From: a virus
Taxonomy: Duplodnaviria > Heunggongvirae > Uroviricota > Caudoviricetes
Direction: 5' to 3' (one strand)
Length of the DNA: 12,737 nt
IMG/VR virus record: IMGVR_UViG_2526164663_000020
The notes beneath the pieces are model-generated. The model saw nothing but the letters and a program-made list of their open reading frames with translations, ran no database searches and was not told where the DNA came from. This document shows positions 1,866 through 12,737 of this stretch, in pieces. Position numbers and translations under genes: made by a program. Position 1 is the first letter of the stretch. Every line of letters begins with the position of its first letter.

Positions 1866-1892
1866 AGTGTCCGTTAAACTCAGGCTACCTCA
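1866..1892. repeat. IS600 terminal inverted repeat, right end in window coordinates
   Basis: …AGTGTCCGTTAAACTCAGGCTACCTCA; ends with CA immediately before the CAA duplication. Confidence 0.7.
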
Positions 1893-1895
1893 CAA
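1893..1895. repeat. Right 3-bp target-site duplication (CAA)
   Basis: See the left duplication at 627..629. Confidence 0.75.
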
Positions 1896-1968
1896 CGTTG
1901 CTACCCGGTCCGTATGTTTCGCGCCAATGCTGGATTGTCAGCAGTCGCTCTTTGGTAATAGTGATCAT
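1893..1968 (-). pseudogene. 5' fragment (first 25 codons) of the IS-disrupted ea-region gene
   Basis: ATG at 1966..1968 overlaps the upstream stop by 4 bp (ATGA). It encodes MITITKERLLTIQHWRETYGPGSNV, near-identical to the N-terminus of the 2685..3143 product (MTTFTKDRLLTIQHWRETYGPGSNVV). Confidence 0.65.
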
Positions 1969-2480
1969 GCCGCGTTTCCTTCTTTCTTATTAACAATTAC
2001 ACCGTCATATATTTCATTAAGGTGCCCTCTCAACTCCATGCGCCTTAATGCAGATAACATGTAATCGCATTCAACCTGCTTATTTCCAGTAAATGGCTTA
2101 TCGTCAGGATTACCCCAACAGCAATTACCCTTGGGCCACCCATGTACTTTCCGTACTCTTCCGTTAACAACGTGAAGTAATCCCCAGCCGGGAGGTAAAT
2201 CCTCAACTGAAATAATTCCCGGCTCACTAATAAAGAATCGCCAGTCGCCCATGCCAAGTGAGGGATTTTTACGGAAACGCTTATTTCTATCTGCCAACAA
2301 GTCAGCACGAGAACACTTCGCCTCTATCAGGCATGATGCTGAATTTCTGAACCCCATAGCATCTGGCTGTTCTCCGGTACTGGTTACAGCTATAAAGCGG
2401 TCATGAAAACAAACCTTGAACCCGTTGCGCTTAAGGAACTTGTACGCAATCTGACAGAGTTCGCGGTGTGTTAACGCCAT
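1965..2480 (-). CDS. Hypothetical phage early protein (171 aa) with a possible PD-(D/E)xK nuclease-like motif
   Basis: Start chosen at ATG 2478..2480, preceded by AAGGAG at a 6-nt spacing; the ORF track starts at an upstream GTG at 2588. Motif …GEQPDAMGF…CLIEAKCS… (PD, then about 13 residues, then E-A-K). The stop overlaps the next ATG (ATGA). Confidence 0.6.
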   Translation of the reverse strand: MALTHRELCQIAYKFLKRNGFKVCFHDRFIAVTSTGEQPDAMGFRNSASCLIEAKCSRADLLADRNKRFRKNPSLGMGDWRFFISEPGIISVEDLPPGWGLLHVVNGRVRKVHGWPKGNCCWGNPDDKPFTGNKQVECDYMLSALRRMELRGHLNEIYDGVIVNKKEGNAA

Positions 2481-2481
2481 A

Positions 2482-2679
2482 TCACTCTCCTTTAGTGCGC
2501 AAATGTTTTTTCCAGCGGTTTTGCGCCGCGCTGCGCTTATCTTTGACTCCCTCTCTGGCAATTCCAGAAAATGAGAACAACACCACACGGCGATTGCTAA
2601 CTCTCAACCACTGGCTGGGGTAGCAAAGTCTGTATACACGGGAAATTAGCATCTTGGCTTTACGATTGTTGGTTGCCAT
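2482..2679 (-). CDS. Small basic hypothetical protein (about 65 aa); start uncertain
   Basis: Minus-strand ORF between two tightly spaced genes, stop 1 nt before the next start. ATG at 2677..2679 follows AAGGA at about 8 nt. An alternative ATG at 2686..2688 overlaps the upstream stop (ATGA). Arg/Lys-rich. Confidence 0.35.
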   Translation of the reverse strand: MATNNRKAKMLISRVYRLCYPSQWLRVSNRRVVLFSFSGIAREGVKDKRSAAQNRWKKHLRTKGE

Positions 2680-2684
2680 ATCGT

Positions 2685-3143
2685 TCATCCTTTGATGTCT
2701 GTATTTACAGCCTGGCAAGCCTCTTCGAGCACCCAGTCAACAGCGTCTTTCCACGCACCAGTCCCAACTGGCGGATTCTCATTTTTTACCTGCTCATAAA
2801 AACGCACCGCTTTAACCAGTCCTTCAGGCACTACCGGCGCTGGTAAGGCAGCGTGACAGTAGAGTGGCATAGTTTTGTACAGTGGTTCGCCAGGACTTCC
2901 GTCAACCTGATTCCATTCTTCAACCCAGGCATCAACAACCGCTTTGCTGGTTGATACATGTTCTTCTGAATCTACATTTTGTCCTGATATACAGAACATA
3001 ACTGGCTCTGCTGCCAGTGATGCCAGCGCAATCCGTGCCAGCTCTTCCGCTTCTTCTGCTGGAAGCACAACGTTGCTACCCGGTCCGTATGTTTCGCGCC
3101 AATGCTGGATTGTCAGCAGTCGATCTTTGGTAAAAGTGGTCAT
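2685..3143 (-). CDS. Hypothetical ea-region protein (152 aa); intact paralog of the IS-disrupted gene
   Basis: ORF MTTFTKDRLLTIQHWRETYGPGSNVVLPAEEAEELARIALASLAAEP…; its first ~47 codons are near-identical to 1893..1968 plus 564..629, after which the two diverge. Confidence 0.7.
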   Translation of the reverse strand: MTTFTKDRLLTIQHWRETYGPGSNVVLPAEEAEELARIALASLAAEPVMFCISGQNVDSEEHVSTSKAVVDAWVEEWNQVDGSPGEPLYKTMPLYCHAALPAPVVPEGLVKAVRFYEQVKNENPPVGTGAWKDAVDWVLEEACQAVNTDIKG

Positions 3144-3145
3144 AG

Positions 3146-3337
3146 CTATTTCACCTTAATCTCAACATTTCGCAGCTTTAGCTCTACTGGCAGGTCTGAC
3201 TTTCCTGTTAATGCTAATGCGAGATTTTCTGGAGTAGTGAGAACAGTTATTGTTTTCCCCCTCGCCAGACGAATAATCATGTGTATCTCGCTATCGTCAC
3301 ATGCTCCTGGTCGAACAATTGAGATTTGTCCGTTCAT
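3146..3337 (-). CDS. Small hypothetical phage protein (63 aa)
   Basis: Internal ATG at 3335..3337 (MNGQISIVRPG…) lies 1 nt after the upstream gene's stop at 3339; its own stop is 2 nt before the next gene. The ORF track's 77-aa form would overlap the upstream gene. Confidence 0.5.
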   Translation of the reverse strand: MNGQISIVRPGACDDSEIHMIIRLARGKTITVLTTPENLALALTGKSDLPVELKLRNVEIKVK

Positions 3338-3338
3338 C

Positions 3339-3539
3339 TCACTCTCCTTTGATGCGAATGCCAGTAGCGCGGATTGCATCGATGACTTCAGAAACTTTGT
3401 ATGCCATTACCGTTTGGTAATCATCGTGAAAATCTGTTCGATGAAGCATGCTGCTACGTTCCGGGAGCAGTATTTCCCGCGCTTCCAGTTCTGCAATGCG
3501 CTTTTTTGCTGCTTCCAGTTCATCCAGTAATTCCAGCAC
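3339..3539 (-). CDS. Small hypothetical protein (66 aa), coiled-coil-like
   Basis: GTG start at 3537..3539; sequence LELLDELEAAKKRIAELEAREILL… The overlapping alternative-frame ORF 3407..3622 is Arg/Trp/Cys-rich and judged spurious. Confidence 0.5.
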   Translation of the reverse strand: MLELLDELEAAKKRIAELEAREILLPERSSMLHRTDFHDDYQTVMAYKVSEVIDAIRATGIRIKGE

Positions 3540-3667
3540 GGTAGCCGGATTAGCCTTGGCAACAAAATCCCGGACTGGCTTACAATCAATCTCCGCAATG
3601 GGTTGATACGATGTGTAGCCATGCTGTCTTGTATAACTACCGTGACGAATAACGAAAAATCACCATT

Positions 3668-3745
3668 TATTTTTTAGCCTGCCACTTATCTTCACCGGCT
3701 TTCTCTGCCGCTTCACGCAGTGCCTGATAGTCAATCTTGCTCACT
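3668..3745 (-). CDS. Possible micro-ORF (about 25 aa) translationally coupled to the upstream gene
   Basis: GTG at 3743..3745 overlaps the upstream TGA stop (GTGA) and is preceded by GGAGG at a 6-nt spacing; encodes [25 protein letters not shown]. Coordinates approximate. Confidence 0.25.
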
Positions 3746-4370
3746 GGTTGCCTCCTTTGCGAAGCCGTTCCGCCCATTCTTCAAGGGATTTCTCTGCATA
3801 TTCACCGGACAGGCCATCAATCGGATGCGATTCATTAGCTAACTCTTCTTTTGCTGACAGAATCATGCGCGTAACGTCGAAAACTTCACGTAAAGACTTA
3901 TTGATAAATCCGTGGTTGAAAGCAGCAGCAAGACGGCTTGCGGTATAGTTAATCCCCTCGTTGCGAGCCTCCGCACGAATTTCAGCCAGAAAAGCATCGG
4001 TGGCTGGCATATTTCCTGTTGCCTTCATGGCCTCCAAAATAACCAGAACGCCATCTCGCCCAACCACCTCAGCGATAACCTCGGTGTTGTCGCCAACAAC
4101 ATCGCATAATGCCTGAACTGCCTTACGAGCCAGCTCATTCTCCGCCGCAAGCGCCGAAAACTTCTCGTGTGCCAACTTAACAGCCGAATCAGCCTGCTTA
4201 ATTGACTCAATCGCTTTCTGCTGGTCTTCGGACAGAGCCGAAATCTTGGCCTCCGCTTCAGCAAATTTACGCACAAGATATTCAGCGTTTGTTTCGTTAA
4301 CCTTTAAATCACATGGGATGCATTTACCTTTCAGAAATCCATCCATCTCAATTAGTGTCATTTGTTTCAT
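3741..4370 (-). CDS. Hypothetical phage early protein (about 209 aa)
   Basis: Long minus-strand ORF. The preferred start, ATG 4368..4370 ([12 protein letters not shown]…), overlaps the upstream stop (ATGA); the ORF track starts at GTG 4388. Confidence 0.65.
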
Positions 4371-4531
4371 TTCTTCCCACTCCGCCACATCGCATTCAGA
4401 TATTTGTTATCATTAACAGAGCAGAAACTCTTTCGCTTAAGCAATTCCTCTCTCGATGGCATTGGCTTTACGCGTTGGCGAATAATCATTTCTGCCGGAA
4501 GAATGCCGGGATTGTATGCAAGTCCTCTCAT
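4367..4531 (-). CDS. Small hypothetical protein (54 aa)
   Basis: ATG at 4529..4531 lies 10 nt after the upstream stop at 4542, with GAGG upstream; its stop overlaps the next start. Confidence 0.45.
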
Positions 4532-4541
4532 GGTAAATTCC

Positions 4542-4838
4542 TCAGTTATTACTGATAGCGCCATAGCGTGAGCGGTAATTACGCAGGCGCGGGTCGATAT
4601 ATTCAGGGAATTTGTCTATTGTCGCTTTTCGCAACGGTCTCATTGCTGTTTCGTTTGTTCGGTCCTTCTCCTGTTTTAGCGCGAGTTGTATATCGCGTCG
4701 GTACATCCGTTCTGCTTTTGTTTCTGGTGTCAGAGCAAGAAACGCGTCGAAATTGTTTTTGATATTTCCCAGCACCTCCGCCTTGGAGCTACCGGAGCAG
4801 TTGCGCGGGTCATCCGCACCATACAGAGGCGCTGGCAT
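4542..4838 (-). CDS. Hypothetical protein (98 aa)
   Basis: Minus-strand ORF immediately downstream of the SSB-like gene, 23-nt gap. Confidence 0.55.
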
Positions 4839-4861
4839 AATGGGAGCCTTATTTTCAGTAA

Positions 4862-5449
4862 TCAGAAAGGAGGGTAATCGTTCTGGCTGTAACCATAATC
4901 ATCTGCATGATTATGGCTTACGTTTTTAGAGCGATTGTCTTTATCTTTGAGGCTGGCAACCATGTTGGCGATAGTTTCTGGTTGCTTGCCTTCTGCCTTT
5001 TCTTTAAGGGTTTGACCTGTTTGTGCAATAAACGGGATGCGTATTTCCATCTGGTAGCTGTCTGCGCCAGTCTTTTTGTTTGTGGTTAATACTTTCTGGA
5101 GCACTAACCCGATTTTCTTTCCATGAAATTCAGGTGCAACAAATTTACTGGCGGAAACCATATGTTGCGTTAATTGTCCAATCCCGGCACACCCCATCAT
5201 GGCGTGAACGACATTTGCGCCAAATTTGTTTTCCGTGCCGTCATTTTTCTGAACACAGACGCTAAGATACTGGATTTTACGTCCGTCGTCGGATTCTCCA
5301 GAAAACTCAATAAATTTGGCTCCTTTTTCTGATTGCTTGAGTTCTGCTTCAGTAATGGTAATTATGTAAGCGCCAGTTTCGTTAATAAAACCACCTTGCC
5401 CTGCGGTCAGTGCTGCTTCTTCGTTATAAGTAAAAATTACGTTGCTCAT
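4862..5449 (-). CDS. Sak4-associated single-strand-DNA-binding-like protein (putative; DUF669-like is my recollection)
   Basis: 195-aa ORF whose ATG overlaps the Sak4 stop by 4 bp (5446..5449). The position immediately downstream of a Sak4-type ATPase is typical of the cognate SSB partner. No canonical SSB motif recognised by eye. Confidence 0.55.
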   Translation of the reverse strand: MSNVIFTYNEEAALTAGQGGFINETGAYIITITEAELKQSEKGAKFIEFSGESDDGRKIQYLSVCVQKNDGTENKFGANVVHAMMGCAGIGQLTQHMVSASKFVAPEFHGKKIGLVLQKVLTTNKKTGADSYQMEIRIPFIAQTGQTLKEKAEGKQPETIANMVASLKDKDNRSKNVSHNHADDYGYSQNDYPPF

Positions 5450-6126
5450 GCGGCGTTTTCCTTAATTTGATGAACATTATTGATGCCGTAGTAATCACAA
5501 ACAGTGGCATCGACGAAAGAGAGATCGTTATCAATCTCATTGGAATCAAACATTCCCATTGGGGATTTAACAGTGTCTGCACCGTTGTTTTTCGTGGTGA
5601 AAAAGAACTGGTCATCGCGGGTAAGAGTGCGAAGAACTATAGTAAACATGCCTTCGACAGTGATTTTCTCGTCCAGCATTTTGCCGATAGTCTTCATTTT
5701 CACGCGCCCCATAGGGGTTTCTTCGGTGTGCGCAAGAAAATAGACTCTCAGGTCATCAGGCGCATCCTGTGCAGCCTTAATGACCTCCCATGCGTGGCGG
5801 CCTATCTCAGTAAATTTATCAAACGATTTTTCTTCTGAGCGGCGCATAAACTCATTGCTCATCACATACTGGAAGTCATCAACAATAACGATTCTTTTTC
5901 CGTATTCGTGAGCACGCTTAATTACAGCAACTATTACGTCCCATTTGTCAGTGGTAACTACGGTTCCTTTTTTTGCTCTGGCATCCCATGCAAGCCAGTT
6001 TTTTGATTTAAATGGTAGCGGCTTGCCTATTGGTTTTATAAGTATTGCTTCCTCTGGATTGATATTTCTCATGCTGGTTGATTTTCCGGTGCCAGACTCA
6101 CCGAGTATTAATATCGCAGTTCCCAT
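5446..6126 (-). CDS. Sak4-like core-only RecA-family recombination ATPase
   Basis: 226-aa ORF with an N-terminal Walker A (ILILGESGTGKST) and a Walker B-like hydrophobic stretch ending in DD (RIVIVDDFQ). Size and position between kil/cIII and the ea genes are those of a lambdoid recombination module. Confidence 0.7.
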   Translation of the reverse strand: MGTAILILGESGTGKSTSMRNINPEEAILIKPIGKPLPFKSKNWLAWDARAKKGTVVTTDKWDVIVAVIKRAHEYGKRIVIVDDFQYVMSNEFMRRSEEKSFDKFTEIGRHAWEVIKAAQDAPDDLRVYFLAHTEETPMGRVKMKTIGKMLDEKITVEGMFTIVLRTLTRDDQFFFTTKNNGADTVKSPMGMFDSNEIDNDLSFVDATVCDYYGINNVHQIKENAA

Positions 6127-6134
6127 AATTCACC

Positions 6135-6323
6135 TCAGAATGGTAATTCGGATGGGGAGGAAAGAAATTCGCGCTCATTCATGCGCTCTCTTTGTGCCTG
6201 CCATAAGCAAAGTTGTTTCTTTGATTTATCTCCCGCTTTACGCCAGTAACGAGCCTCAGCAATGTGATACTCTCTTTTTAATCGACTTAACTCTGGGGTT
6301 TTCGCCAGTTCTACCGGAATCAT
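6135..6323 (-). CDS. Small hypothetical protein (62 aa) in the position where lambda carries gam
   Basis: ATG at 6321..6323 overlaps the kil stop (ATGA); its stop lies 8 nt before the Sak4 start. The ORF track's 66-aa form starts 12 nt upstream. Confidence 0.5.
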   Translation of the reverse strand: MIPVELAKTPELSRLKREYHIAEARYWRKAGDKSKKQLCLWQAQRERMNEREFLSSPSELPF

Positions 6324-6433
6324 TTTGACCTCCATTTTCTGTAGGCTTCTACGGCTTCACGAAACATCTTTTCATCGCCAATAAAAGTGGCGATAGTGAA
6401 TTTAGTCTGGATAGCCATAAGTGTTTTATCCAT
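6320..6433 (-). CDS. kil: Kil-like host cell-division inhibitor
   Basis: MDKTLMAIQTKFTIATFIGDEKMFREAVEAYRKWRSK closely matches my recollection of lambda Kil (MDQTLMAIQTKFTIATFIGDEKMFREAV…). AGGAG lies 9 nt upstream of the ATG at 6431..6433. Confidence 0.8.
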   Translation of the reverse strand: MDKTLMAIQTKFTIATFIGDEKMFREAVEAYRKWRSK

Positions 6434-6566
6434 TTTTGGGAACTCCTGGCTGATTAAGTACGTCGATGAGTCGCTTCCATCCGTCACGTAATTTACGGGT
6501 GATTCGTTCAAGTAAAGATTCGGAAGGGCAGCCAGCAACAGGCCACCCTGCAATGGCATATTGCAT
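6426..6566 (-). CDS. cIII: CIII (FtsH/HflB inhibitor that stabilises CII)
   Basis: MQYAIAGWPVAGCPSESLLERITRKLRDGWKRLIDVLNQPGVPKNG is near-identical to the lambda CIII N-terminal 46 residues. AGGAG lies 7 nt upstream of the ATG at 6564..6566. It is 46 aa here against 54 aa in lambda as I recall it. Confidence 0.9.
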   Translation of the reverse strand: MQYAIAGWPVAGCPSESLLERITRKLRDGWKRLIDVLNQPGVPKNG

Positions 6567-6586
6567 GGTGTGCTCCTTATTTATAC

Positions 6587-6655
6587 ATAACGAAAAACGC
6601 CTCGAGTGAAGCGTTATTGGTATGCATATAAAAAGGCCCTCACGCACTGGAGGGC
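6587..6655 (-). terminator. Tandem intrinsic terminators on the minus strand (tL-like) between the orphan gene and cIII
   Basis: Minus-strand RNA: GCCCUC-cagugcgu-GAGGGC followed by CUUUUUAUA (stem 6636..6641 with 6650..6655, U-run 6626..6635). Then a weaker AACGC-N10-GCGUU followed by UUUCGUU (6596..6615, U-rich 6587..6595). Confidence 0.6.
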
Positions 6656-6759
6656 AAAGAAGATTTCCAATAATCAGAACAAGTCGGCTCCTGTTTAGTT
6701 ACGAGCGACATTGCTCCGTGTATTCACTCGTTGGAATGAATACACAGTGCTTATTCGTA

Positions 6760-7230
6760 CTAATAAAATACCCAATTTTCTGTTTCTTGGTTGTGTCCAA
6801 AGTTATATTCAATATCTGGTGTTGATGTATCAATATTTTTCATCCCATCAACAAGAGTTGATACAACAGCCAAATCTTGTTTTATTCTCATTAAATGGTA
6901 TTTCTTCCGGCGCAATAAACTTTCAATAGCAAGTTTCTTCGTTGGGAATGCAAAAGATCTTTCTGCATTTTTTGCTACTTTCTTAATTGCATATCTATTT
7001 CTCCTTTGTTTCCATTCCTGTAACCACTGATTTGGTGCTGGTTTAAAATTAACAATCCAATGCGCAGGAACCAACCATGCATAATGCTCTGTCTGATGAA
7101 AAGCTATATATTGAAGTGCGAATATTTTTATCCCATCTTCTTCAACTGTCGCCTGGAATCTCCAGAAAACAGGCATTCCATCATGTTCAGTTTCTGATTC
7201 AGGAAAAGGTACGCTCCATGATTTTGTCAT
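6760..7230 (-). CDS. Orphan hypothetical protein (156 aa) in an AT-rich island immediately downstream of N
   Basis: Minus-strand ORF with GAGGTG at a good spacing before the ATG at 7228..7230. Visibly more AT-rich than its flanks. No family recognised. Confidence 0.6.
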   Translation of the reverse strand: MTKSWSVPFPESETEHDGMPVFWRFQATVEEDGIKIFALQYIAFHQTEHYAWLVPAHWIVNFKPAPNQWLQEWKQRRNRYAIKKVAKNAERSFAFPTKKLAIESLLRRKKYHLMRIKQDLAVVSTLVDGMKNIDTSTPDIEYNFGHNQETENWVFY

Positions 7231-7288
7231 ATCTCACCTCAAATAAGTGGTTTGCTGCCTAATTTCATTTTCTGGCGACCAACACAAG

Positions 7289-7672
7289 TCACCTCGCCGT
7301 CAGTTGTTTTGATTTCCGGTAGCCTGCCGCGTAAATGGCTACGTTTGGAAGACATACACCAGTTTCTGGTTGCTTATGTCCAAACTCATTCGCGTACACA
7401 ATGGCCGCTCGCTCCAGATTGCGTCTGTATTCTTTCTGTTGCCAGATCACGTCCTGTGCCATGAACTTAATTGGCTTAGCGTCTTCTATGCGCTCAGGCG
7501 TTTCGTGAGTACCTTTAGCCTGAATCTGCGCTCTGCTTAGAGTAGGGCGGTGTAATACTTCTGAACTTATTGCTTCTTCGCGGGCCAGTACGCCGTTAGC
7601 TAATGCCTTTGCCTTTAAACGCTCACGACGACGAGAACGTGAATTGCCTTTGAACTGAGTTCTGCGTGTCAT
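7289..7672 (-). CDS. N: N-type transcription antiterminator, P22 gp24-like
   Basis: 127 aa with an N-terminal arginine-rich motif (GNSRSRRRERLKAKALA) and a C-terminus …LPNVAIYAAGYRKSKQLTAR matching my recollection of P22 gp24 (…LPGVALYAAGHRKSKQITAR). GGAGG lies before the ATG at 7670..7672. Confidence 0.8.
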   Translation of the reverse strand: MTRRTQFKGNSRSRRRERLKAKALANGVLAREEAISSEVLHRPTLSRAQIQAKGTHETPERIEDAKPIKFMAQDVIWQQKEYRRNLERAAIVYANEFGHKQPETGVCLPNVAIYAAGYRKSKQLTAR

Positions 7673-7682
7673 ATAGACCTCC

Positions 7683-7826
7683 TGATGAACTTTGGTGGTG
7701 TGGTAGGTGGGAGACCCATTTCGACCTGTTTCGGCCTACTTCAATTCGGCAATAGTCCCGCAGGCCTCGCCGCTTTACGTGCGACATATTCCCGTCCATG
7801 AACCCTTCACCACACCCCAAAGTTCA
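7683..7826 (-). promoter_or_regulatory. Long-range imperfect dyad in the N leader, a candidate RNase III-type regulatory hairpin
   Basis: 7683..7706 (gatgaactttggtggtgtggtagg) pairs with 7803..7826 (ccttcaccacaccccaaagttca), enclosing about 95 nt. The promoter-distal arm ends next to the N Shine-Dalgarno. Confidence 0.45.
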
Positions 7827-7837
7827 CTTTGGTTATT

Positions 7838-7852
7838 GCGCTTTGTCAGCGC
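7838..7852 (-). promoter_or_regulatory. nutL boxB hairpin, P22 type
   Basis: The minus strand reads GCGCUGACAAAGCGC, a 5-bp stem with a GACAA loop, as I recall for P22 boxB. The same loop occurs in the plus-strand nutR candidate at 10747..10761. Confidence 0.65.
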
Positions 7853-7859
7853 CGTAGAT

Positions 7860-8140
7860 TCATATTCGAATCGTTGTATATTCACCGCCCTGGTGAGTAA
7901 TGCGTCCTGCTGATGGGTGAACTTTATCGGAGTGATAAATTAATGGCAATAGCAAAATGATAAATTCTCTTGGTTTTCAAATATCGTATTGATTCTTATG
8001 GTGTTTTATTTTGTTGTAGGAATTCGACAGGATAAATAAAGAGATTTGAGGGAGATCTGGATTGCGTTGTTTAGCAAGTTGTATCTATTTATTTTTCAAC
8101 AAATACAATTGGTTATGTGTTTTTAGGTGTGGGGATCGTG
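7860..8140 (-). promoter_or_regulatory. Putative PL promoter and OL operator region
   Basis: AT-rich non-coding stretch between the tImm-like terminator and nutL. Contains the motif (T/G)GATAAAT at 7933..7940, 7958..7965 and 8030..8037 and a palindrome TTTATC-N5-GATAAA at 7924..7940; the same motif family recurs between cI and cro. The -35 and -10 elements were not pinned down. Confidence 0.4.
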
Positions 8141-8171
8141 AGGCAAAGAAAACCCGGCGCTGAGGCCGGGT
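8141..8171 (-). terminator. Intrinsic terminator on the minus strand (tImm-like) ending the cI/TAC transcript before PL
   Basis: Minus-strand RNA: ACCCGGC-cucagc-GCCGGGU followed by UUUCUUUG (stem 8152..8158 with 8165..8171), 8 nt after the stop at 8180. Confidence 0.7.
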
Positions 8172-8179
8172 GGGGAATT

Positions 8180-8584
8180 TCACTTATTACTGTTCGTTTC
8201 CATGGGATTGGCCAAGAAATCAAAATAAGGCAGAGTGAACCTACCAAGGTTTGACATGAGGATAATTTGCTCGGCATATGTTTTTATATAGGGATATGCC
8301 ATATTGGGAGCAATGGACCTTACCTCATATGATTTTGCCATTTCATGAGAAAAATCATCTTCTGACCGGAAGTCAAAGTCGTATGTGATGTCCATCTCAA
8401 GCCTGCCTTCAATAGTTACGGAGGCAAAATATCTCACTCTAAATAGCTTTGAATCCTTCACATTAGTGTAAAGTTCATTATTTAGATTAACGGTTGTTTT
8501 TATGGCTTTTTTTGCTGTTGAATCGCCTTCTAGCCGTGTCATAACCAAGCGTTCAACTTTTTTGCTAATGAGTTCAATTTTCAT
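8180..8584 (-). CDS. SecB-like chaperone, putative third component of a toxin-antitoxin-chaperone module
   Basis: 134 aa. The segments FRVRYFASV and APNMAYPYIKTYAEQIILMSNLGRFTLPYFDF parallel E. coli SecB LRVTVTAS and [33 protein letters not shown] as I recall them. Weak RBS. Lies 82 nt downstream of the antitoxin gene on the same strand. Confidence 0.6.
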   Translation of the reverse strand: MKIELISKKVERLVMTRLEGDSTAKKAIKTTVNLNNELYTNVKDSKLFRVRYFASVTIEGRLEMDITYDFDFRSEDDFSHEMAKSYEVRSIAPNMAYPYIKTYAEQIILMSNLGRFTLPYFDFLANPMETNSNK

Positions 8585-8666
8585 GGTAATAATAAGTAAT
8601 TTCCGTCAGAAGTCATTTCGTCATTCAGGTTGCTAGCCGCTGTGAAACTTGATGACAAGTTACTTA

Positions 8667-9236
8667 TCAAAGAAAAACATTCCGTTTTTCTTTGCATTTG
8701 CCATTACCCCTTACTGCGCTGAACAACATTTTTGAAAAGTAAGATTCTGTAGCCTTTTCAGCGAAATAAGCAGAAGGTGATGTGACGGCTGACTCACACC
8801 GAGCAATGACGCTAGTCATGGCTGTTTCTTCTTCCTCTGCGTCAACTAGGCTCCATTCAATTGCGCTCATATCTTGAATTAAGATATCTGCAGGAATTCC
8901 AAGTCCGTCATGTAGTCTACGGATCATTGAAAGACTTAATGGACGCTTACGATTTAAGACCTCAGATACTTTAGATGCTGAGCCAATGTATTGTTTCATA
9001 TCGGCATAAGAGAGGCCTTGTTGATCCATACGGAACTTGATTGCTTCTATGGGATCTGGCTTGTCCATAGGGAACTCGCGTGACTCATAGTGCTCGATAA
9101 GCAAGCCTAGTAGTTCAAACTCATCAAAATCTTCAGTTCCAGGTTGTAAATCACTAGACGCAAGTTCAATGAGCCTTTCCATAGCTGCAGCATGCTCTTC
9201 ACTATTTTTAATGATGCGCCAGCTAGTTCGATTCAT
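8667..9236 (-). CDS. HigA-like HTH antitoxin with a C-terminal extension of about 70 aa
   Basis: 189 aa. The start overlaps the toxin stop by 4 bp (ATGA). The central segment …MKQYIGSASKVSEVLNRKRPLSLSMIRRLHDGLGIPADILIQ resembles the HTH region of E. coli HigA as I recall it. The tail (…SPSAYFAEKATESYFSKMLFSAVRGNGKCKEKRNVFL) is absent from canonical HigA. Confidence 0.65.
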   Translation of the reverse strand: MNRTSWRIIKNSEEHAAAMERLIELASSDLQPGTEDFDEFELLGLLIEHYESREFPMDKPDPIEAIKFRMDQQGLSYADMKQYIGSASKVSEVLNRKRPLSLSMIRRLHDGLGIPADILIQDMSAIEWSLVDAEEEETAMTSVIARCESAVTSPSAYFAEKATESYFSKMLFSAVRGNGKCKEKRNVFL

Positions 9237-9520
9237 TTAAGCCTCCACTTGTCGTACTCTGCATGAGTTCCAACTCTTTCAACTATGACCATTCCTGCCT
9301 GGTAAACAACTTGGACAACGAGCCGATAGTTATTGCCTTTTATATTAAAAATTACCCTGTTGTTAGGAAGGAAGTCGGCAGAATTAAATCTATTCCGTAT
9401 GTCTTGAGTCGTTTTCCAGTTTTCTCTTATCACTTCATCATACCAAGAGTCTAAAGCCCCCTTGGCCTGATTGTGCTTCCGGCTAAAACTGTGAAGCTTC
9501 TCTACGTTTAAGACCTTCAT
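9233..9520 (-). CDS. HigB-like (YgjN-type) RelE-fold mRNA interferase toxin
   Basis: 95 aa. The C-terminal half …NNRVIFNIKGNNYRLVVQVVYQAGMVIVERVGTHAEYDKW resembles E. coli HigB as I recall it. The toxin gene precedes the antitoxin, as in higBA operons. Confidence 0.7.
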   Translation of the reverse strand: MKVLNVEKLHSFSRKHNQAKGALDSWYDEVIRENWKTTQDIRNRFNSADFLPNNRVIFNIKGNNYRLVVQVVYQAGMVIVERVGTHAEYDKWRLK

Positions 9521-9532
9521 AATCCGATTTTG

Positions 9533-9574
9533 TTCCCTCTTTGGGAATTATAGATTCATTTCCCATAAAGGGAA
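9533..9574 (-). promoter_or_regulatory. Promoter of the TAC operon with two palindromic candidate operators
   Basis: Palindromes TTCCC-N5-GGGAA at 9533..9547 and 9560..9574 flank a perfect minus-strand -10 TATAAT (plus-strand attata at 9547..9552), about 27 nt upstream of the toxin ATG. The -35 element is weak or unclear. Confidence 0.6.
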
Positions 9575-9656
9575 TCTGTATTTTTATCCAGAAATGCTAT
9601 GTACATCACCCAAACGTCTCTTCAGGCCACTGGTTACCAGCTATGTGACGATGAAG

Positions 9657-10361
9657 TCACGAACTTTTCAGCCACTCCCTTGCCTCGATGTCATCCAGAT
9701 GGCGAGATTGCTTCAGAATACCAGCCACATACTCCACCTTTGCTACTTGATGATAAGGCAACGTTATTGGCCTGTGGTCCTGGTTGATGCTTGTAAATTG
9801 GTATTCTCCGTCTCTGTCATAGCCAAGAACTTTGATCATGTTGTGTCCTTCAACAGTTCTGACAAACACCTCATCACCCGGGAATACTTTGGTGTTAGGC
9901 TCAATGAGTACATATTCTCCTGATTTTATTCTGGGCCACATGCTGTCTCCTTTCACACGAAGACCAAAGGCATCTGGATCATCGCTATAAATTTTGAGCC
10001 ACCCATCGCGCTCTTCGGTCATCTCGATGGCACCATCAACACCAAGAATTGCCTCACCAACCACGCGCACTAACCCTTTTCTTACCTGACCGACAAAAGT
10101 TAAAGAATCTGAGCATGATGCAATTGGTGTTACATCATGTACCAAATCAAGCCACCCATTAGGTAACCCAAGCGCGGCTTCAAATTTTCTTGCTAGTTTA
10201 TCCCCTATGTTTCGAGTGCTTTTTTCACCGGAGACTTGCGTGAGTTGAGAAGGGCTAACCCCAAGCTTATCGGCAAAGCTTGCATTAGTGTTACCCGCGA
10301 TTTTTTTATGCTCATCTAGCAAAAACGCCAGATTCGATTTGCGAATATCTTTGTTTTCCAT
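9657..10361 (-). CDS. cI: cI-type prophage repressor (N-terminal HTH, C-terminal S24 LexA-like autopeptidase domain)
   Basis: 234 aa with an HTH region (…FADKLGVSPSQLTQV…) and a C-terminal GDSMWP motif typical of S24 self-cleaving repressors. Divergently arranged with cro. Confidence 0.85.
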   Translation of the reverse strand: MENKDIRKSNLAFLLDEHKKIAGNTNASFADKLGVSPSQLTQVSGEKSTRNIGDKLARKFEAALGLPNGWLDLVHDVTPIASCSDSLTFVGQVRKGLVRVVGEAILGVDGAIEMTEERDGWLKIYSDDPDAFGLRVKGDSMWPRIKSGEYVLIEPNTKVFPGDEVFVRTVEGHNMIKVLGYDRDGEYQFTSINQDHRPITLPYHQVAKVEYVAGILKQSRHLDDIEAREWLKSS

Positions 10362-10474
10362 CTCACAATTTTCCCTCTATTTAGCAAATGGATAAATACG
10401 CAATATGATAAATTTACATTGCGGATGATTTATCAAAATGGTAAAGTTGTTCTGTGTGATAAACGGAGGCACTA
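10362..10474. promoter_or_regulatory. OR region with divergent PRM and PR promoters and candidate operators
   Basis: 113-bp cI-cro intergenic region. Motifs GGATAAAT (10390..10397), TGATAAAT (10406..10413), ATTTATCA (10428..10435) and TGATAAAC (10457..10464). A possible PR has -35 TTGCGG (10419..10424) and -10 TAAAGT (10442..10447) at a 17-bp spacing. GGAGG at 10465..10469 lies 5 nt before the cro ATG. Confidence 0.6.
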
Positions 10475-10708
10475 ATGAGTAATGAACTACTACGCTGGCG
10501 AAAAGAGGCTTCTAGTGAGGAATGGAAGCGACTCGCCGCATTAGCGAAAACTTCAGTTGGCTATCTTGACCAGATTGCATATGGATTTCGAAGAGCTTCC
10601 CCTGATAAAGCGAATGCAATCGAAGAAGCTACTCGTAATTTCACGGGTTATAAACCTGTGAAAAAGGAAAACCTAGTGTTCGTATCGCGTAGAGCATCGG
10701 CTGCATAA
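10475..10708 (+). CDS. cro: Cro-like repressor
   Basis: 77-aa ORF with a strong Shine-Dalgarno, transcribed divergently from cI and followed by nutR and cII. Confidence 0.7.
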   Translation: MSNELLRWRKEASSEEWKRLAALAKTSVGYLDQIAYGFRRASPDKANAIEEATRNFTGYKPVKKENLVFVSRRASAA

Positions 10709-10715
10709 GTAACAC

Positions 10716-10761
10716 CGCTATTTTCACAATGGACATTCGTCCTACGTCGCTGACAAAGCGA
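10716..10761 (+). promoter_or_regulatory. nutR (boxA-like element plus boxB hairpin)
   Basis: BoxA-like CGCTATTTT at 10716..10724 and boxB UCGCUGACAAAGCGA at 10747..10761, with the same GACAA loop as the nutL candidate. Confidence 0.6.
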
Positions 10762-10791
10762 GTCCCAATATATCTGACCAACTAAGGCCAC

Positions 10792-10807
10792 ATGCGTTTC
10801 CACGCAT
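10792..10807 (+). other. Short hairpin between nutR and cII, a possible tR1-region structure
   Basis: ATGCGT-ttcc-ACGCAT, followed by only a weak T-run (accTTTcaa). Confidence 0.3.
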
Positions 10808-10846
10808 ACCTTTCAACTAACTATTCACTATTGGAAATCTTAAGAA

Positions 10847-11143
10847 ATGGAACAAACAAGTTACAGCAAACTATCACAGCGAGAAATTGATCGCGCTGAA
10901 ACTGATTTACTCATCAACCTGTCAACGCTTACCCAGCGCGGTCTGGCAAAGATGATTGGCTGTCATGAATCGAAGATAAGCAGAACGGACTGGAGATTTA
11001 TTGCTTCGGTCTTGTGTGCTTTCGGAATGGCATCAGACATCAGTCCGATTAGTAGGGCTTTTAAGTATGCGCTTGATGGAATCACAAAGAAAAAATCCCC
11101 GGTGGCCGCCGGGGACTCTAAGCAAATTGATATGCAATTCTGA
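10847..11143 (+). CDS. cII: CII-like transcriptional activator
   Basis: 98 aa. The C-terminus …KKKSPVAAGDSKQIDMQF parallels lambda CII …KKRPAATERSEQIQMEF, and the gene sits between cro and O. Confidence 0.75.
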   Translation: MEQTSYSKLSQREIDRAETDLLINLSTLTQRGLAKMIGCHESKISRTDWRFIASVLCAFGMASDISPISRAFKYALDGITKKKSPVAAGDSKQIDMQF

Positions 11144-11163
11144 GGGAATTACTGGATCAATCC
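11087..11163 (-). ncRNA. oop: oop-like antisense RNA overlapping the 3' end of cII
   Basis: Minus-strand terminator CCCCGG-cggcca-CCGGGG followed by AUUUUUUC (stem 11097..11114, U-run 11087..11096). A Po-like promoter on the minus strand inside the start of O has -10 CATAAT (11173..11178) and -35 TTGAGT at a 17-bp spacing. The RNA body resembles lambda oop (…GAUCCAGUAAU…CUCAGAA…). Confidence 0.6.
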
Positions 11164-11175
11164 ACAGGAGTCATT

Positions 11176-12114
11176 ATGACAAATACAGCAAAAATACTCA
11201 ACTTCGGCAGAGGTAACTTTGCCGAACAGGAGCGTAATGTGGCAGATCTCGATGATGGTTACGCCAGACTATCAAATATGCTGATTGAGGCTTATTCAGG
11301 CGCAGATCTGACCAAGCGACAGTTTAAAGTGCTGCTTGCCATTCTGCGTAAAACCTATGGGTGGAATAAACCAATGGACAGAATCACCGATTCTCAACTT
11401 AGCGAGATTACAAAGTTACCTGTCAAACGGTGCAATGAAGCCAAGTTAGAACTCGTCAGAATGAATATTATCAAGCAGCAAGGCGGCATGTTTGGACCAA
11501 ATAAAAACATCTCAGAATGGTGCATCCCTCAAAACGAGGGAGGTTCCCCTAAAATGAGGGACATCCCTCAAAACGAGGGAAAATCCCCTAAAACGAGGGA
11601 TAAAACATCCCTCAAATTAGGGGATTGCTATCCCTCAAAACAGGGGGACACAAAAGACACTATTACAAAAGAAAAAAGAAAAGATTATTCGTCCGAGAAT
11701 TCTGGCGAATCCTCTGACCAGCCAGAAAACGATCTTTCTGTGGTTAAACCGGATGCTGCAATTCAGAGCGGCAGCAAGTGGGGAACAGCAGAAGACCTGA
11801 CCGCCGCAGAGTGGATGTTTGACATGGTGAAGACCATCGCACCATCAGCCAGAAAACCGAATTTTGCAGGGTGGGCTAACGATATCCGCCTGATGCGTGA
11901 ACGTGACGGACGTAACCACCGCGACATGTGCGTGCTGTTCCGCTGGGCATGCCAGGACAACTTCTGGTCCGGTAACGTGCTAAGTCCGGCCAAACTCCGC
12001 GACAAGTGGACCCAACTCGAAATCAACCGTAACAAGCAACAGGCTGGCGTGACAGCTGGAAAACCAAAACTCGACCTGACAAACACTGACTGGATTTACG
12101 GGGTGGATTTATGA
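11176..12114 (+). CDS. O: Replication initiator O (lambda type), 312 aa
   Basis: Near-identical over most of its length to lambda O as I recall it (MTNTAKILNFGRGNFA…TDWIYGVDL), with a 13-aa insertion (GSPKMRDIPQNEG) in the iteron-encoded segment. Confidence 0.95.
   Translation: MTNTAKILNFGRGNFAEQERNVADLDDGYARLSNMLIEAYSGADLTKRQFKVLLAILRKTYGWNKPMDRITDSQLSEITKLPVKRCNEAKLELVRMNIIKQQGGMFGPNKNISEWCIPQNEGGSPKMRDIPQNEGKSPKTRDKTSLKLGDCYPSKQGDTKDTITKEKRKDYSSENSGESSDQPENDLSVVKPDAAIQSGSKWGTAEDLTAAEWMFDMVKTIAPSARKPNFAGWANDIRLMRERDGRNHRDMCVLFRWACQDNFWSGNVLSPAKLRDKWTQLEINRNKQQAGVTAGKPKLDLTNTDWIYGVDL
11524..11690. repeat. Replication origin inside O: six 18-19-bp iterons plus an AT-rich region
   Basis: Iterons of the form ATCCCTCAAAACGAGGGA at about 11524, 11544, 11563, 11583, 11607 and 11630, followed by AT-rich cacaaaagacactattacaaaagaaaaaagaaaagattatt (11649..11690). 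Confidence 0.85.
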
Positions 12115-12737
12115 AAAACATCGCCGCACAGATGGTTAACTTTGACCGTGAGCAGATGCGTCGGATCACCAACAACATGCCGGAACAGTACGACGAAAAG
12201 CCGCAGGTACAACAGGTAGCGCAGATCATCAACGGTGTGTTCAGCCAGTTACTGGCAACTTTCCCGGCGAGTCTGGCTAACCGGGACCAGAACGAACTGA
12301 ATGAAATCCGCCGCCAGTGGGTTCTGGCTTTCCGGGAAAACGGGATCACCTCGATGGAACAGGTTAACGCAGGAATGCGCGTAGCCCGTCGGCAGAATCG
12401 ACCATTTCTTCCATCACCCGGGCAGTTTGTTGCATGGTGCCGGGAAGAAGCATCCGTTATCGCCGGACTGCCAAACGTCAGCGAGCTGGTTGATATGGTT
12501 TACGAGTATTGCCGGAAGCGTGGCCTGTATCCGGATGCAGAGTCTTATCCGTGGAAATCAAACGCGCACTACTGGCTGGTTACCAACCTGTACCAGAACA
12601 TGCGGGCCAATGCGCTGACTGACGCGGAATTACGGCGCAAGGCTGCCGATGAACTGACCTGTATGACAGCACGAATTAACCGTGGTGAGACGATACCTGA
12701 ACCAGTAAAACAACTTCCTGTCATGGGCGGCAGACCT
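12111..12737 (+). CDS. P: Replication protein P (lambda type), 5' part; continues beyond the right edge of the window
   Basis: ATG at 12111 overlaps the O stop (ATGA). The translation MKNIAAQMVNFDREQMRRI…NAHYWLVTNLYQNMRANALTDAELRRKAADEL… matches lambda P as I recall it. It is absent from the ORF track because no stop falls in the window. Confidence 0.9.
   Translation, partial: MKNIAAQMVNFDREQMRRITNNMPEQYDEKPQVQQVAQIINGVFSQLLATFPASLANRDQNELNEIRRQWVLAFRENGITSMEQVNAGMRVARRQNRPFLPSPGQFVAWCREEASVIAGLPNVSELVDMVYEYCRKRGLYPDAESYPWKSNAHYWLVTNLYQNMRANALTDAELRRKAADELTCMTARINRGETIPEPVKQLPVMGGRP

Follow-up and report, generated by a model that had tools for sequence, protein, structure and literature searches.

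The DNA between positions 8141 and 9574 is a higB-higA-higC operon, a toxin-antitoxin-chaperone (TAC) anti-phage system. It occupies the cI-proximal moron slot of a Shiga-toxin lambdoid prophage of the H-19B/BP-4795 type, where it stands in place of lambda rexAB. To judge by sequence, the module is an allele of the HigBAC system of E. coli NT1F31, which was characterised experimentally in 2024 and is already known (Mets et al., 2024, bioRxiv 10.1101/2024.02.24.581848). We estimate at about 0.9 the probability of the explanation as a whole, namely a HigBAC operon in the rexAB slot, a mechanism taken over from the near-identical NT1F31 system, and a frameshift in higA that is most likely an artefact. 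An initial annotation of this DNA had proposed a TAC module and supposed that it might not have been described in this context. This last point was wrong, because both the system and its location in the rexAB slot had been published (Mets et al., 2024).

The features of the locus in the window (the whole stretch of viral DNA that was analysed, 12,737 nt) are the following:

9657-10361, minus strand: cI repressor gene, directly upstream of the module
9533-9574, minus strand: putative autoregulatory region, two TTCCC-N5-GGGAA palindromes around TATAAT, 13-54 nt upstream of the higB ATG
9233-9520, minus strand: higB, 95 aa, RelE-superfamily HigB toxin, by family a ribosome-dependent mRNA interferase
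8667-9236, minus strand: higA as read in the window, 189 aa, HTH antitoxin with an early end at ...NVFL (stop)
8673-8677: frameshift site, plus-strand A5 run (T5 in the coding direction), where all other copies examined have A6
8581-8672, minus strand: out-of-frame higA 3' remnant, in intact copies residues 189-218 (SLISNLSSSFTAASNLNDEMTSDGNYLLLP, including Y214)
8180-8584, minus strand: higC, 134 aa, SecB-like TAC chaperone (SecB^TA), phage sensor
8142-8171, minus strand: intrinsic terminator, which closes the operon and starts the conserved flank bounding the variable slot
7289-7672: N gene, downstream of the module

The three co-oriented ORFs lie on the minus strand between cI and the intrinsic terminator, as had been annotated; the arrangement was confirmed by the ORF coordinates, the 4-bp overlap of higB and higA, the Peptidase_S24 match of cI (Pfam, E 3.8e-16), and the terminator itself. 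The latter is real by scan and folding: a 7-bp stem with six G-C pairs (8171-8152), followed by TTTTCTTT, lies 9 nt past the higC stop and has a folding energy of -13.7 kcal/mol.

The product of the first gene belongs to a recognised family of type II TA toxins. HigB matched Pfam HigB_toxin with 104.2 bits against a cut-off of 27 (E 4.5e-30) and, in the PDB, the solved E. coli HigB structures 5ycl and 5ifg (E 1e-4), and both results bear out its annotation as a HigB-type toxin candidate. The product of the overlapping second gene matched the solved HigA in 5ycl (E 4e-5), which likewise upholds the HigA-type HTH antitoxin candidate; with Pfam HTH_3 it reached 21.4 bits, just below the curated cut-off of 23. 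Residues 1-121 are the part that binds DNA and neutralises HigB. Residues 122-189, past this HigA core, show full identity with the published segment of the chaperone-addiction tail (ChAD), of which they form the first two thirds, with W128, F158, and F188. The full tail of intact copies has 97 residues (122-218), and a match of residues 1-188 was found to phrog_11202, a profile of 218 positions. The antitoxin tail reported initially does therefore exist, but its length of about 70 residues is not native: HigA has 218 aa in intact copies, and the frameshift in the window removes its last 29 residues, Y214 among them.

The SecB relationship of the third protein had to be set by structure prediction and Foldseek, because no SecB family match was found by sequence: the Pfam and NCBIfam profiles, searched to E 1, gave none, and searching the PDB by sequence returned chance matches only. 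The AF2 model of HigC (pLDDT 86.8, pTM 0.80) has four strands and a long helix. Its best Foldseek match was the SecB-like chaperone Rv1957 bound to a ChAD peptide (5mtw, E 5.5e-7, TM 0.73-0.75), and the next were SecB of E. coli and H. influenzae (1qyn and 1fx3, E ~1e-6), with TM values of 0.70-0.77 over these matches. HigC also matched the PADLOC profile PD-T4-9_C (CmdC) with E 3.2e-11, and it has Y39, N41, R49, and D71, the residues of the pocket, at their published positions. The protein is identical to WP_000687675. The idea of a SecB-like third protein thus stood by predicted fold and by PD-T4-9_C, whereas the SecB-like "segments" on which it had been based are invisible to Pfam and NCBIfam. 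Together, the HigB_toxin profile, the match to a solved HigA, and the SecB-fold model support the TAC reading of the three genes. A housekeeping SecB for protein export was also considered for HigC and rejected: the protein belongs to no SecB family, its context is a prophage TA operon and not yibN-grxC-secB-gpsA, and the fold alone is common to both.

Two prophage-borne or phage-active defence systems share components with the module. If the two best PADLOC matches were taken at face value, as by a defence finder, the module would be called a system of the PD-lambda-2 type, since HigB matched PD-Lambda-2_A (E 2.5e-42) and HigA residues 5-127 matched PD-Lambda-2_B (E 2.8e-50). PD-lambda-2, which acts against lambda, indeed has a homologous HigB-like first gene and an N-terminal HigA/HTH domain in its second (Vassallo et al., 2022). 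However, the B profile was matched at positions 3-125 of 402 only; PD-lambda-2B has a C-terminal ImmA/IrrE-type peptidase where HigA has the ChAD, and the third gene product is a SecB-like chaperone rather than the P4-antitoxin-like PD-lambda-2C. With the defining peptidase domain and the C component missing, the assignment is refuted by domain content, and we regard it as extremely improbable. CmdTAC/PD-T4-9 is a prophage-borne TAC defence with a chaperone homologous to HigC (Vassallo et al., 2022, 2024). It differs in its toxin, an mRNA ADP-ribosyltransferase and not a HigB, in its unrelated antitoxin, and in protecting against T-even phages.

The same order of toxin, antitoxin, and chaperone occurs in M. 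tuberculosis Rv1955-Rv1957 (HigB1-HigA1-SecB^TA), where the antitoxin, as in HigBAC, has a C-terminal ChAD tail bound by the SecB-like chaperone. By structure, HigC matches Rv1957 best, yet the two are only 16-17% identical, and the ChAD of HigBAC is about twice as long as the mycobacterial one. The E. coli HigA ends in Leu-Pro, and its inactivation is independent of ClpXP, unlike that of M. tuberculosis HigA1 (Mets et al., 2024). The phage-sensing role demonstrated for E. coli HigBAC further distinguishes it from Rv1955-Rv1957.

The closest system is that of NT1F31, whose three genes are likewise higB, higA, and higC in that order, in the same lambdoid-prophage slot downstream of cI. The higB gene of the window is identical to the published one at 287 of 288 nt, the single change being R31I (I31 in the window, R31 in NT1F31), and the 5' regions agree at 146 of 153 nt, with seven substitutions. 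The identity extends to all three components, with higA and higC sampled by the primers, peptide, and DNA fragments given in Dataset S1 of Mets et al. (2024). The published HigA121-146 peptide is present at 26 of its 26 residues. Of the native NT1F31 primer segments in that dataset, 22 of 26 are exact at the locus, three differ, and one is too short to place; the differences fall in the Q185R codon, in one cloning-primer segment (prTM0022), and in one terminator base. Within the parts sampled, HigA carries at least one change, R185 in the window for Q185 in NT1F31. Both systems have all published anchor and pocket residues at identical positions, and the terminator and the 5' palindromes are common to them; apart from the substitutions mentioned, the window copy differs by a 1-base deletion. 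Its host prophage is of the O26/O157 Stx-phage type (H-19B, BP-4795, ST2-8624). A search of the text of the paper for the RefSeq accessions of the three proteins found none.

The position of the operon was fixed by the DNA that follows it. The 70-nt flank 3' of higC is the one that adjoins the rexB stop codon in a lambda lysogen, which confirms the proposed rexAB-equivalent slot, and the flank at 8100-8171 is common to some 890 further genomes. The comparison with related prophages that had been suggested showed that the slot is variable: a prophage with a near-identical cI (WP_000428099 vs. WP_000428098) has other cargo there, and lambda has rexAB. RexAB, a lysogen-expressed system, acts by abortive infection to exclude other phages. 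It has the identical position to HigBAC, with cI on one side and, on the other, the conserved terminator flank that lies upstream of pL/N. The proteins, in contrast, have no sequence or fold relationship, and RexAB is a two-gene system that acts by membrane depolarisation, whereas HigBAC has a TA-chaperone mechanism.

Upstream of higB, exact TTCCC-N5-GGGAA palindromes are found at 9533-9547 and 9560-9574, with a perfect -10 TATAAT at 9552-9547. They are the only two matches to this pattern in the window, against 0.34 expected, and two were reached in 7 of 200 shuffles. The whole palindrome/TATAAT region is kept in the 5' region of NT1F31, and six of the seven substitutions are farther upstream. 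The module had been credited with its own promoter; the TATAAT and the palindromes are present, but the -35 is poor, and no sigma-70-like promoter was reported upstream of higB at the thresholds of a consensus scan. A scan of the minus strand between cI and higB found no terminator-like site. We infer that the operon is probably transcribed in the lysogen by read-through from the cI promoter (PRM), and a HigA-autoregulated promoter at the palindromes and TATAAT may also contribute.

Function has been studied with the NT1F31 allele (Mets et al., 2024). There HigBAC, located in the rexAB slot, defends against lambda-vir and Bas25; the trigger is the lambda tail protein gpV, of which an S54P escape mutant was described. 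HigC is needed to keep HigBA from being toxic, a dependence that disappears when HigA residues 122-218 are deleted. The mechanism shown there by experiment may, by near-identity, be carried over to the allele in the window. HigB would be an RNase that blocks translation, and the HTH antitoxin HigA would neutralise it. HigA, with its long disordered C-terminal ChAD (122-218), would be unstable unless held through aromatic anchors by the tetrameric SecB-like HigC. On infection by a lambda-like siphophage, the nascent major tail protein gpV would compete with the ChAD for the same HigC pockets; HigA would then be lost, HigB would be freed, and translation and phage production would stop. The role in exclusion or abortive infection that had been suggested for the module is, by this analogy, supported by the NT1F31 experiments. 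In BP-4795, the single carrier phage in which self-triggering was checked, nothing in the major tail subunit could be aligned with the gpV trigger segment (48-78).

The architecture, that of a generic type II TA system whose antitoxin is unstable, would also agree with a module that primarily stabilises the prophage by addiction, in which prophage loss frees HigB and kills the cured cells. We consider this very unlikely as the main role, given the direct defence phenotypes and the specific gpV trigger of the near-identical allele, and given that related prophages carry rexAB or other small cargo in the slot. Addiction and defence are not mutually exclusive.

The anatomy of higA in the window departs from that of NT1F31, where HigA has 218 aa, with Y214 and a Leu-Pro C-terminus (Mets et al., 2024). 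Alignment to NC_013361 showed that the loss of one base (A6 to A5) ends HigA at residue 189 and creates an apparent gap of 82 nt before higC. This gap, which had been taken as native, is thus a product of the frameshift. In the translation of the intact reference L001, the higA TGA stop overlaps the higC ATG (ATGA) and HigA has 218 aa. Among records carrying the module, all 88 complete E. coli genomes and all 30 phage records showed the same form, none had the A5 deletion (0/88 and 0/30; 0/118 curated records in all), and the NT1F31 primer oKE89 reads T6 at this site.

The T6 to T5 contraction is most likely a homopolymer sequencing or assembly error, and the biological locus an intact HigBAC. 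This rests on the pattern of differences from the closest genome, which were compared by BLAST segments, as a relocated IS600 confused the whole-window MAFFT alignment to L002. There are four indels, all of them -1 contractions of homopolymers of at least 6 nt (4 of the 17 such runs in the window), without a single substitution over 10.85 kb (1891-12737). Two of the four also break an ead/Ea22-like gene, and none is shared by any of the 88 or the 317 complete genomes examined. Such a pattern is hard to obtain by mutation and is typical of 454, Ion Torrent, or nanopore error. The unusual short tail and the gap before the chaperone gene would then most likely be a homopolymer artefact.

The 189-aa form was nevertheless found in 8 contigs, against at least 1,000 for the 218-aa form, and the exact protein came from six independent samples. 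Most of the other carriers are gap-laden assemblies, with 16-23 gap openings per 2-3 kb, which argues for error. Two Logan contigs (SRR040459 and DRR424513), however, are identical to the window and free of further indels over 2.6-3.7 kb. A genuine but rare slippage variant is therefore possible, although we judge it unlikely in view of the contracted homopolymers and the 118 curated records. It would be a natural HigA(1-189) without the Y214 anchor and part of the aggregation-prone patch after F188. HigB would probably still be neutralised, as two of the three binding aromatics remain, and a lysogen with the truncation would be viable, as single and pairwise anchor substitutions were tolerated in published mutagenesis. 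Translational coupling of higC would be lost, as in place of the ATGA overlap there would be 82 untranslated nt without a clear Shine-Dalgarno sequence, and the result would be an attenuated or re-tuned TAC with an altered trigger threshold or HigC dosage. It is more doubtful still, and in our view improbable, that the T6 run within the ChAD-encoding stretch of higA is a true slippage hot spot and the recurrent 189-aa form a natural switch, that is, phase variation in a TAC system. A shorter ChAD (no Y214) and uncoupled higC translation would in that case re-tune the sensitivity or dosage of the defence in a subpopulation.

We found the locus in 88 of 5,426 complete E. coli genomes and in many Stx1a- and Stx2a-converting phages of O26 and O157 EHEC. 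In RefSeq and GenBank, HigA is labelled "helix-turn-helix domain-containing protein" and HigC "hypothetical protein", or all three proteins are "hypothetical protein". The main value of the result is the correct annotation of the locus as the characterised HigBAC; it opens no new question, since publications already cover mechanism, trigger, and genomic slot. By analogy with NT1F31, its recognition would mean that prophages of medical importance harbour a defence which is expressed in the lysogen and senses tail proteins of the lambda type, and this bears on superinfection among Stx phages as well as on phage therapy directed at STEC.

The window corresponds to the early/immunity region of a lambdoid prophage, in which cI and N are separated by three minus-strand ORFs at the coordinates first assigned to them. 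An intrinsic terminator follows the third gene, as had been proposed (7-bp stem including 6 G-C pairs, -13.7 kcal/mol, by terminator scan and folding).

Features of the window (coordinates, strand, description)
672-1490, IS600 orfB
1526-1828, IS600 orfA
7289-7672, minus, N (Pfam N_peptide, E 2.1e-15)
8171-8142, minus, terminator, G+C-rich hairpin and T-tract
8180-8584, minus, HigC ORF (134 aa)
8667-9236, minus, HigA ORF as read in the window (189 aa; 4-bp overlap with the HigB ORF)
9233-9520, minus, HigB ORF (95 aa)
9657-10361, minus, cI (Peptidase_S24, E 3.8e-16)
10475-10708, plus, cro
10847-11143, plus, cII (Phage_CII, E 4.4e-32)
within the window, plus, replication gene O

The N antiterminator is encoded by an intact 127-aa ORF; at this position in RefSeq reference genomes PGAP gives only a 69-nt partial pseudogene, 'regulator'. 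Between N and cIII, a conserved 156-aa ORF (6760-7230, minus strand) matched phrog_1636 (E 2.7e-112) and no Pfam family, and is another uncharacterised early-left gene.

The family and fold matches of the three proteins support the toxin-antitoxin-chaperone reading for each component. The identity of the 95-aa protein as HigB is clear, as first claimed: it scored 104 bits against Pfam HigB_toxin (cut-off 27, E 4.5e-30) and matched solved E. coli HigB structures in a PDB sequence search. The HigA-type HTH antitoxin was likewise confirmed, since residues 53-119 of the 189-aa protein, the HTH region, matched solved HigA (5ycl/5ifg, E about 5e-5); this protein also matched the N-terminal 125 positions of the PADLOC profile PD-Lambda-2_B (E 2.8e-50). 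For the 134-aa protein, the proposed likeness to SecB stood in the predicted fold and not in sequence searches of Pfam, NCBIfam or PDB, which gave no match. It matched the CmdTAC chaperone profile of PADLOC, PD-T4-9_C (E 3.2e-11). An alignment of 19 homologues from Escherichia, Klebsiella, Citrobacter, Salmonella and Serratia gave a confident AlphaFold2 model (pLDDT 86.8, pTM 0.80), in which four long strands precede a long helix. The top Foldseek match in the PDB was the M. tuberculosis SecB-like chaperone Rv1957 with a bound ChAD (chaperone-addiction tail) peptide (5mtw, E 5.5e-7, TM 0.73-0.75), and the next were E. coli and H. influenzae SecB.

Judged on its sequence, the locus is a different allele of HigBAC of E. 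coli NT1F31, a system already characterised in 'Mechanism of phage sensing and abortion by toxin-antitoxin-chaperone systems' (Mets et al., 2024, bioRxiv 10.1101/2024.02.24.581848). The finding is thus real, correctly interpreted and already known, and the suggestion in the initial annotation that this system may not have been described does not hold. The published landmarks of NT1F31 HigA (218 aa; ChAD 122-218; anchors W128, F158, F188 and Y214; Leu-Pro C-terminus) and HigC (pocket residues Y39, N41, R49 and D71) fit the window locus (Mets et al., 2024). The alleles were compared using the sequences, primers and peptide of Dataset S1 of Mets et al., with higA and higC sampled via primer segments and the peptide. 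They agreed at 287 of 288 nt in higB (the difference being R31I), 146 of 153 nt in the 5' region, and 26/26 residues of the synthetic peptide HigA121-146. The native primer segments over higA, higC and the terminator were almost all exact; exceptions included one codon (Q185 in NT1F31, R185 in the window) and one terminator base.

In the NT1F31 system, HigBA without HigC is toxic, HigA is undetectable without HigC, and deletion of the ChAD frees HigA from its need for the chaperone. The system guards against lambda-vir and Bas25; nascent gpV, the lambda major tail protein, competes with the ChAD at the HigC pockets, and gpV S54P was found in escaping phages (Mets et al., 2024).

The HigA tail of about 70 residues first described proved to be the product of a 1-base loss. 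The higA gene of E. coli O26:H11 11368, like that of all other copies examined, has 657 nt, encodes 218 aa ending ...GNYLLLP, and overlaps higC by ATGA. Over the 1561 nt of the module, a single position separates the window from these copies: it has A5 at 8673-8677 where they have A6 (T6 on the coding strand, also in NT1F31 according to primer oKE89), so that HigA ends ...NVFL* after residue 189. The same deletion also accounts for the 82-nt gap between higA and the third gene; it occurred in 0 of 88 complete E. coli genomes and 0 of 30 phage records carrying the module.

A homopolymer sequencing error is the most probable source of the frameshift (probability about 0.85). Compared with strain 00_3305, the closest complete genome, positions 1891-12737 had zero substitutions and three single-base gaps, and the IS600 copy had one further single-base gap. 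All four are -1 contractions of 6-7-nt homopolymers (667, 3654, 3669 and 8673-8677), out of 17 such runs in the compared stretch. This pattern argues against a rare, natural slippage variant, as do the public data, in which the exact 189-aa HigA was found in 8 contigs from 6 samples, most from indel-ridden assemblies, and the 218-aa form in at least 1000 contigs. The window is matched exactly by two short contigs (SRR040459 and DRR424513), which speak for such a variant; we consider it unlikely. If it were real, the Y214 anchor, part of the aggregation-prone patch and higC translational coupling would be lost; the lysogen would probably remain viable, as HigC rescue is abolished only by a triple anchor substitution, single and pairwise ones being tolerated (Mets et al., 2024). 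Two of the four contractions, at 3654 and 3669, also disrupt the ead/Ea22-like gene (3339-3744, minus strand; 135 aa in reference genomes); they lie 15 nt from each other and are present in none of the 317 genomes having the segment. The four contractions suggest that homopolymers were systematically undercalled in the assembly behind the window, whose other apparent frameshifts should be distrusted.

The claim that HigBAC occupies the rexAB-equivalent slot was shown directly by its flank and by a related prophage. The segment 8100-8171 (70 nt, including the terminator) directly adjoins the rexB stop codon in a lambda lysogen, and is conserved (91-97% identity) in about 890 other E. coli genomes, which lack HigBAC; it is the fixed left boundary of a variable cargo slot. 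The NZ_CP074977.1 prophage, with a near-identical cI (WP_000428099 vs WP_000428098 in the window), holds other cargo, the point that the proposed comparison of related prophages was to check: two unrelated small hypothetical ORFs of 42 and 120 aa replace HigBAC at 1593-2099. RexAB shares only position and lifestyle with HigBAC.

The promoter ascribed to the module is a putative one. A perfect TATAAT upstream of higB (9552-9547) is flanked by two exact TTCCC-N5-GGGAA palindromes within 9533-9574 (two in the whole window vs 0.34 expected); both are kept in NT1F31, and the sequence further upstream varies. The arrangement looks like a HigA-autoregulated promoter, with the palindromes as candidate HigA operators. 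Since the -35 is poor and a consensus promoter scan made no call at the TATAAT, we infer this promoter from its motifs. Read-through from PRM is also plausible, because a terminator scan found no terminator-like site on the minus strand between cI and higB; lambda cI-rexA-rexB is the comparison case.

M. tuberculosis Rv1955-1957 has the architecture and chaperone fold in common with the window HigBAC, which differs from it in ChAD length, C-terminal degron and independence from ClpXP. CmdTAC shares only the chaperone, and PD-lambda-2 the HigB/HigA-HTH 'warhead'. Identity with PD-lambda-2 was rejected: the locus is without the peptidase domain and P4-antitoxin-like third gene that define that system. 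The PADLOC signature of 8180-9520 was chimeric (PD-Lambda-2_A, the N-terminal third only of PD-Lambda-2_B, and PD-T4-9_C), an example of how TA 'warheads' and sensor modules undergo modular exchange. Automated defence finders on 2023 models would mislabel or miss HigBAC.

Of 5426 complete E. coli genomes, 88 contained HigBAC, mainly those of O26:H11, O157:H7 86-24 and related STEC. It was also present in 30 phage records, for the most part of Stx1a- or Stx2a-converting phages (including H-19B, BP-4795 and ST2-8624), and its genes are annotated there as hypothetical or generic HTH proteins. Recognising it there improves the annotation modestly and adds no new system. Our literature search found no paper specifically tying HigBAC to Stx phages, except one review mentioning both. 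BP-4795 (AJ556162.1) carries HigBAC intact. No counterpart of the lambda gpV trigger segment (residues 48-78) could be aligned in its major tail subunit (36187-37032); this single example fits with avoidance of self-triggering by carrier phages on induction.

A complete IS600 (IS3 family, 630-1892) interrupts the DUF551-gene region. The insertion is polymorphic among closely related prophages, since IS600 in strain 00_3305 lies 490 nt away from the window site, and strain 6629 has the right-hand junction in common with the window.
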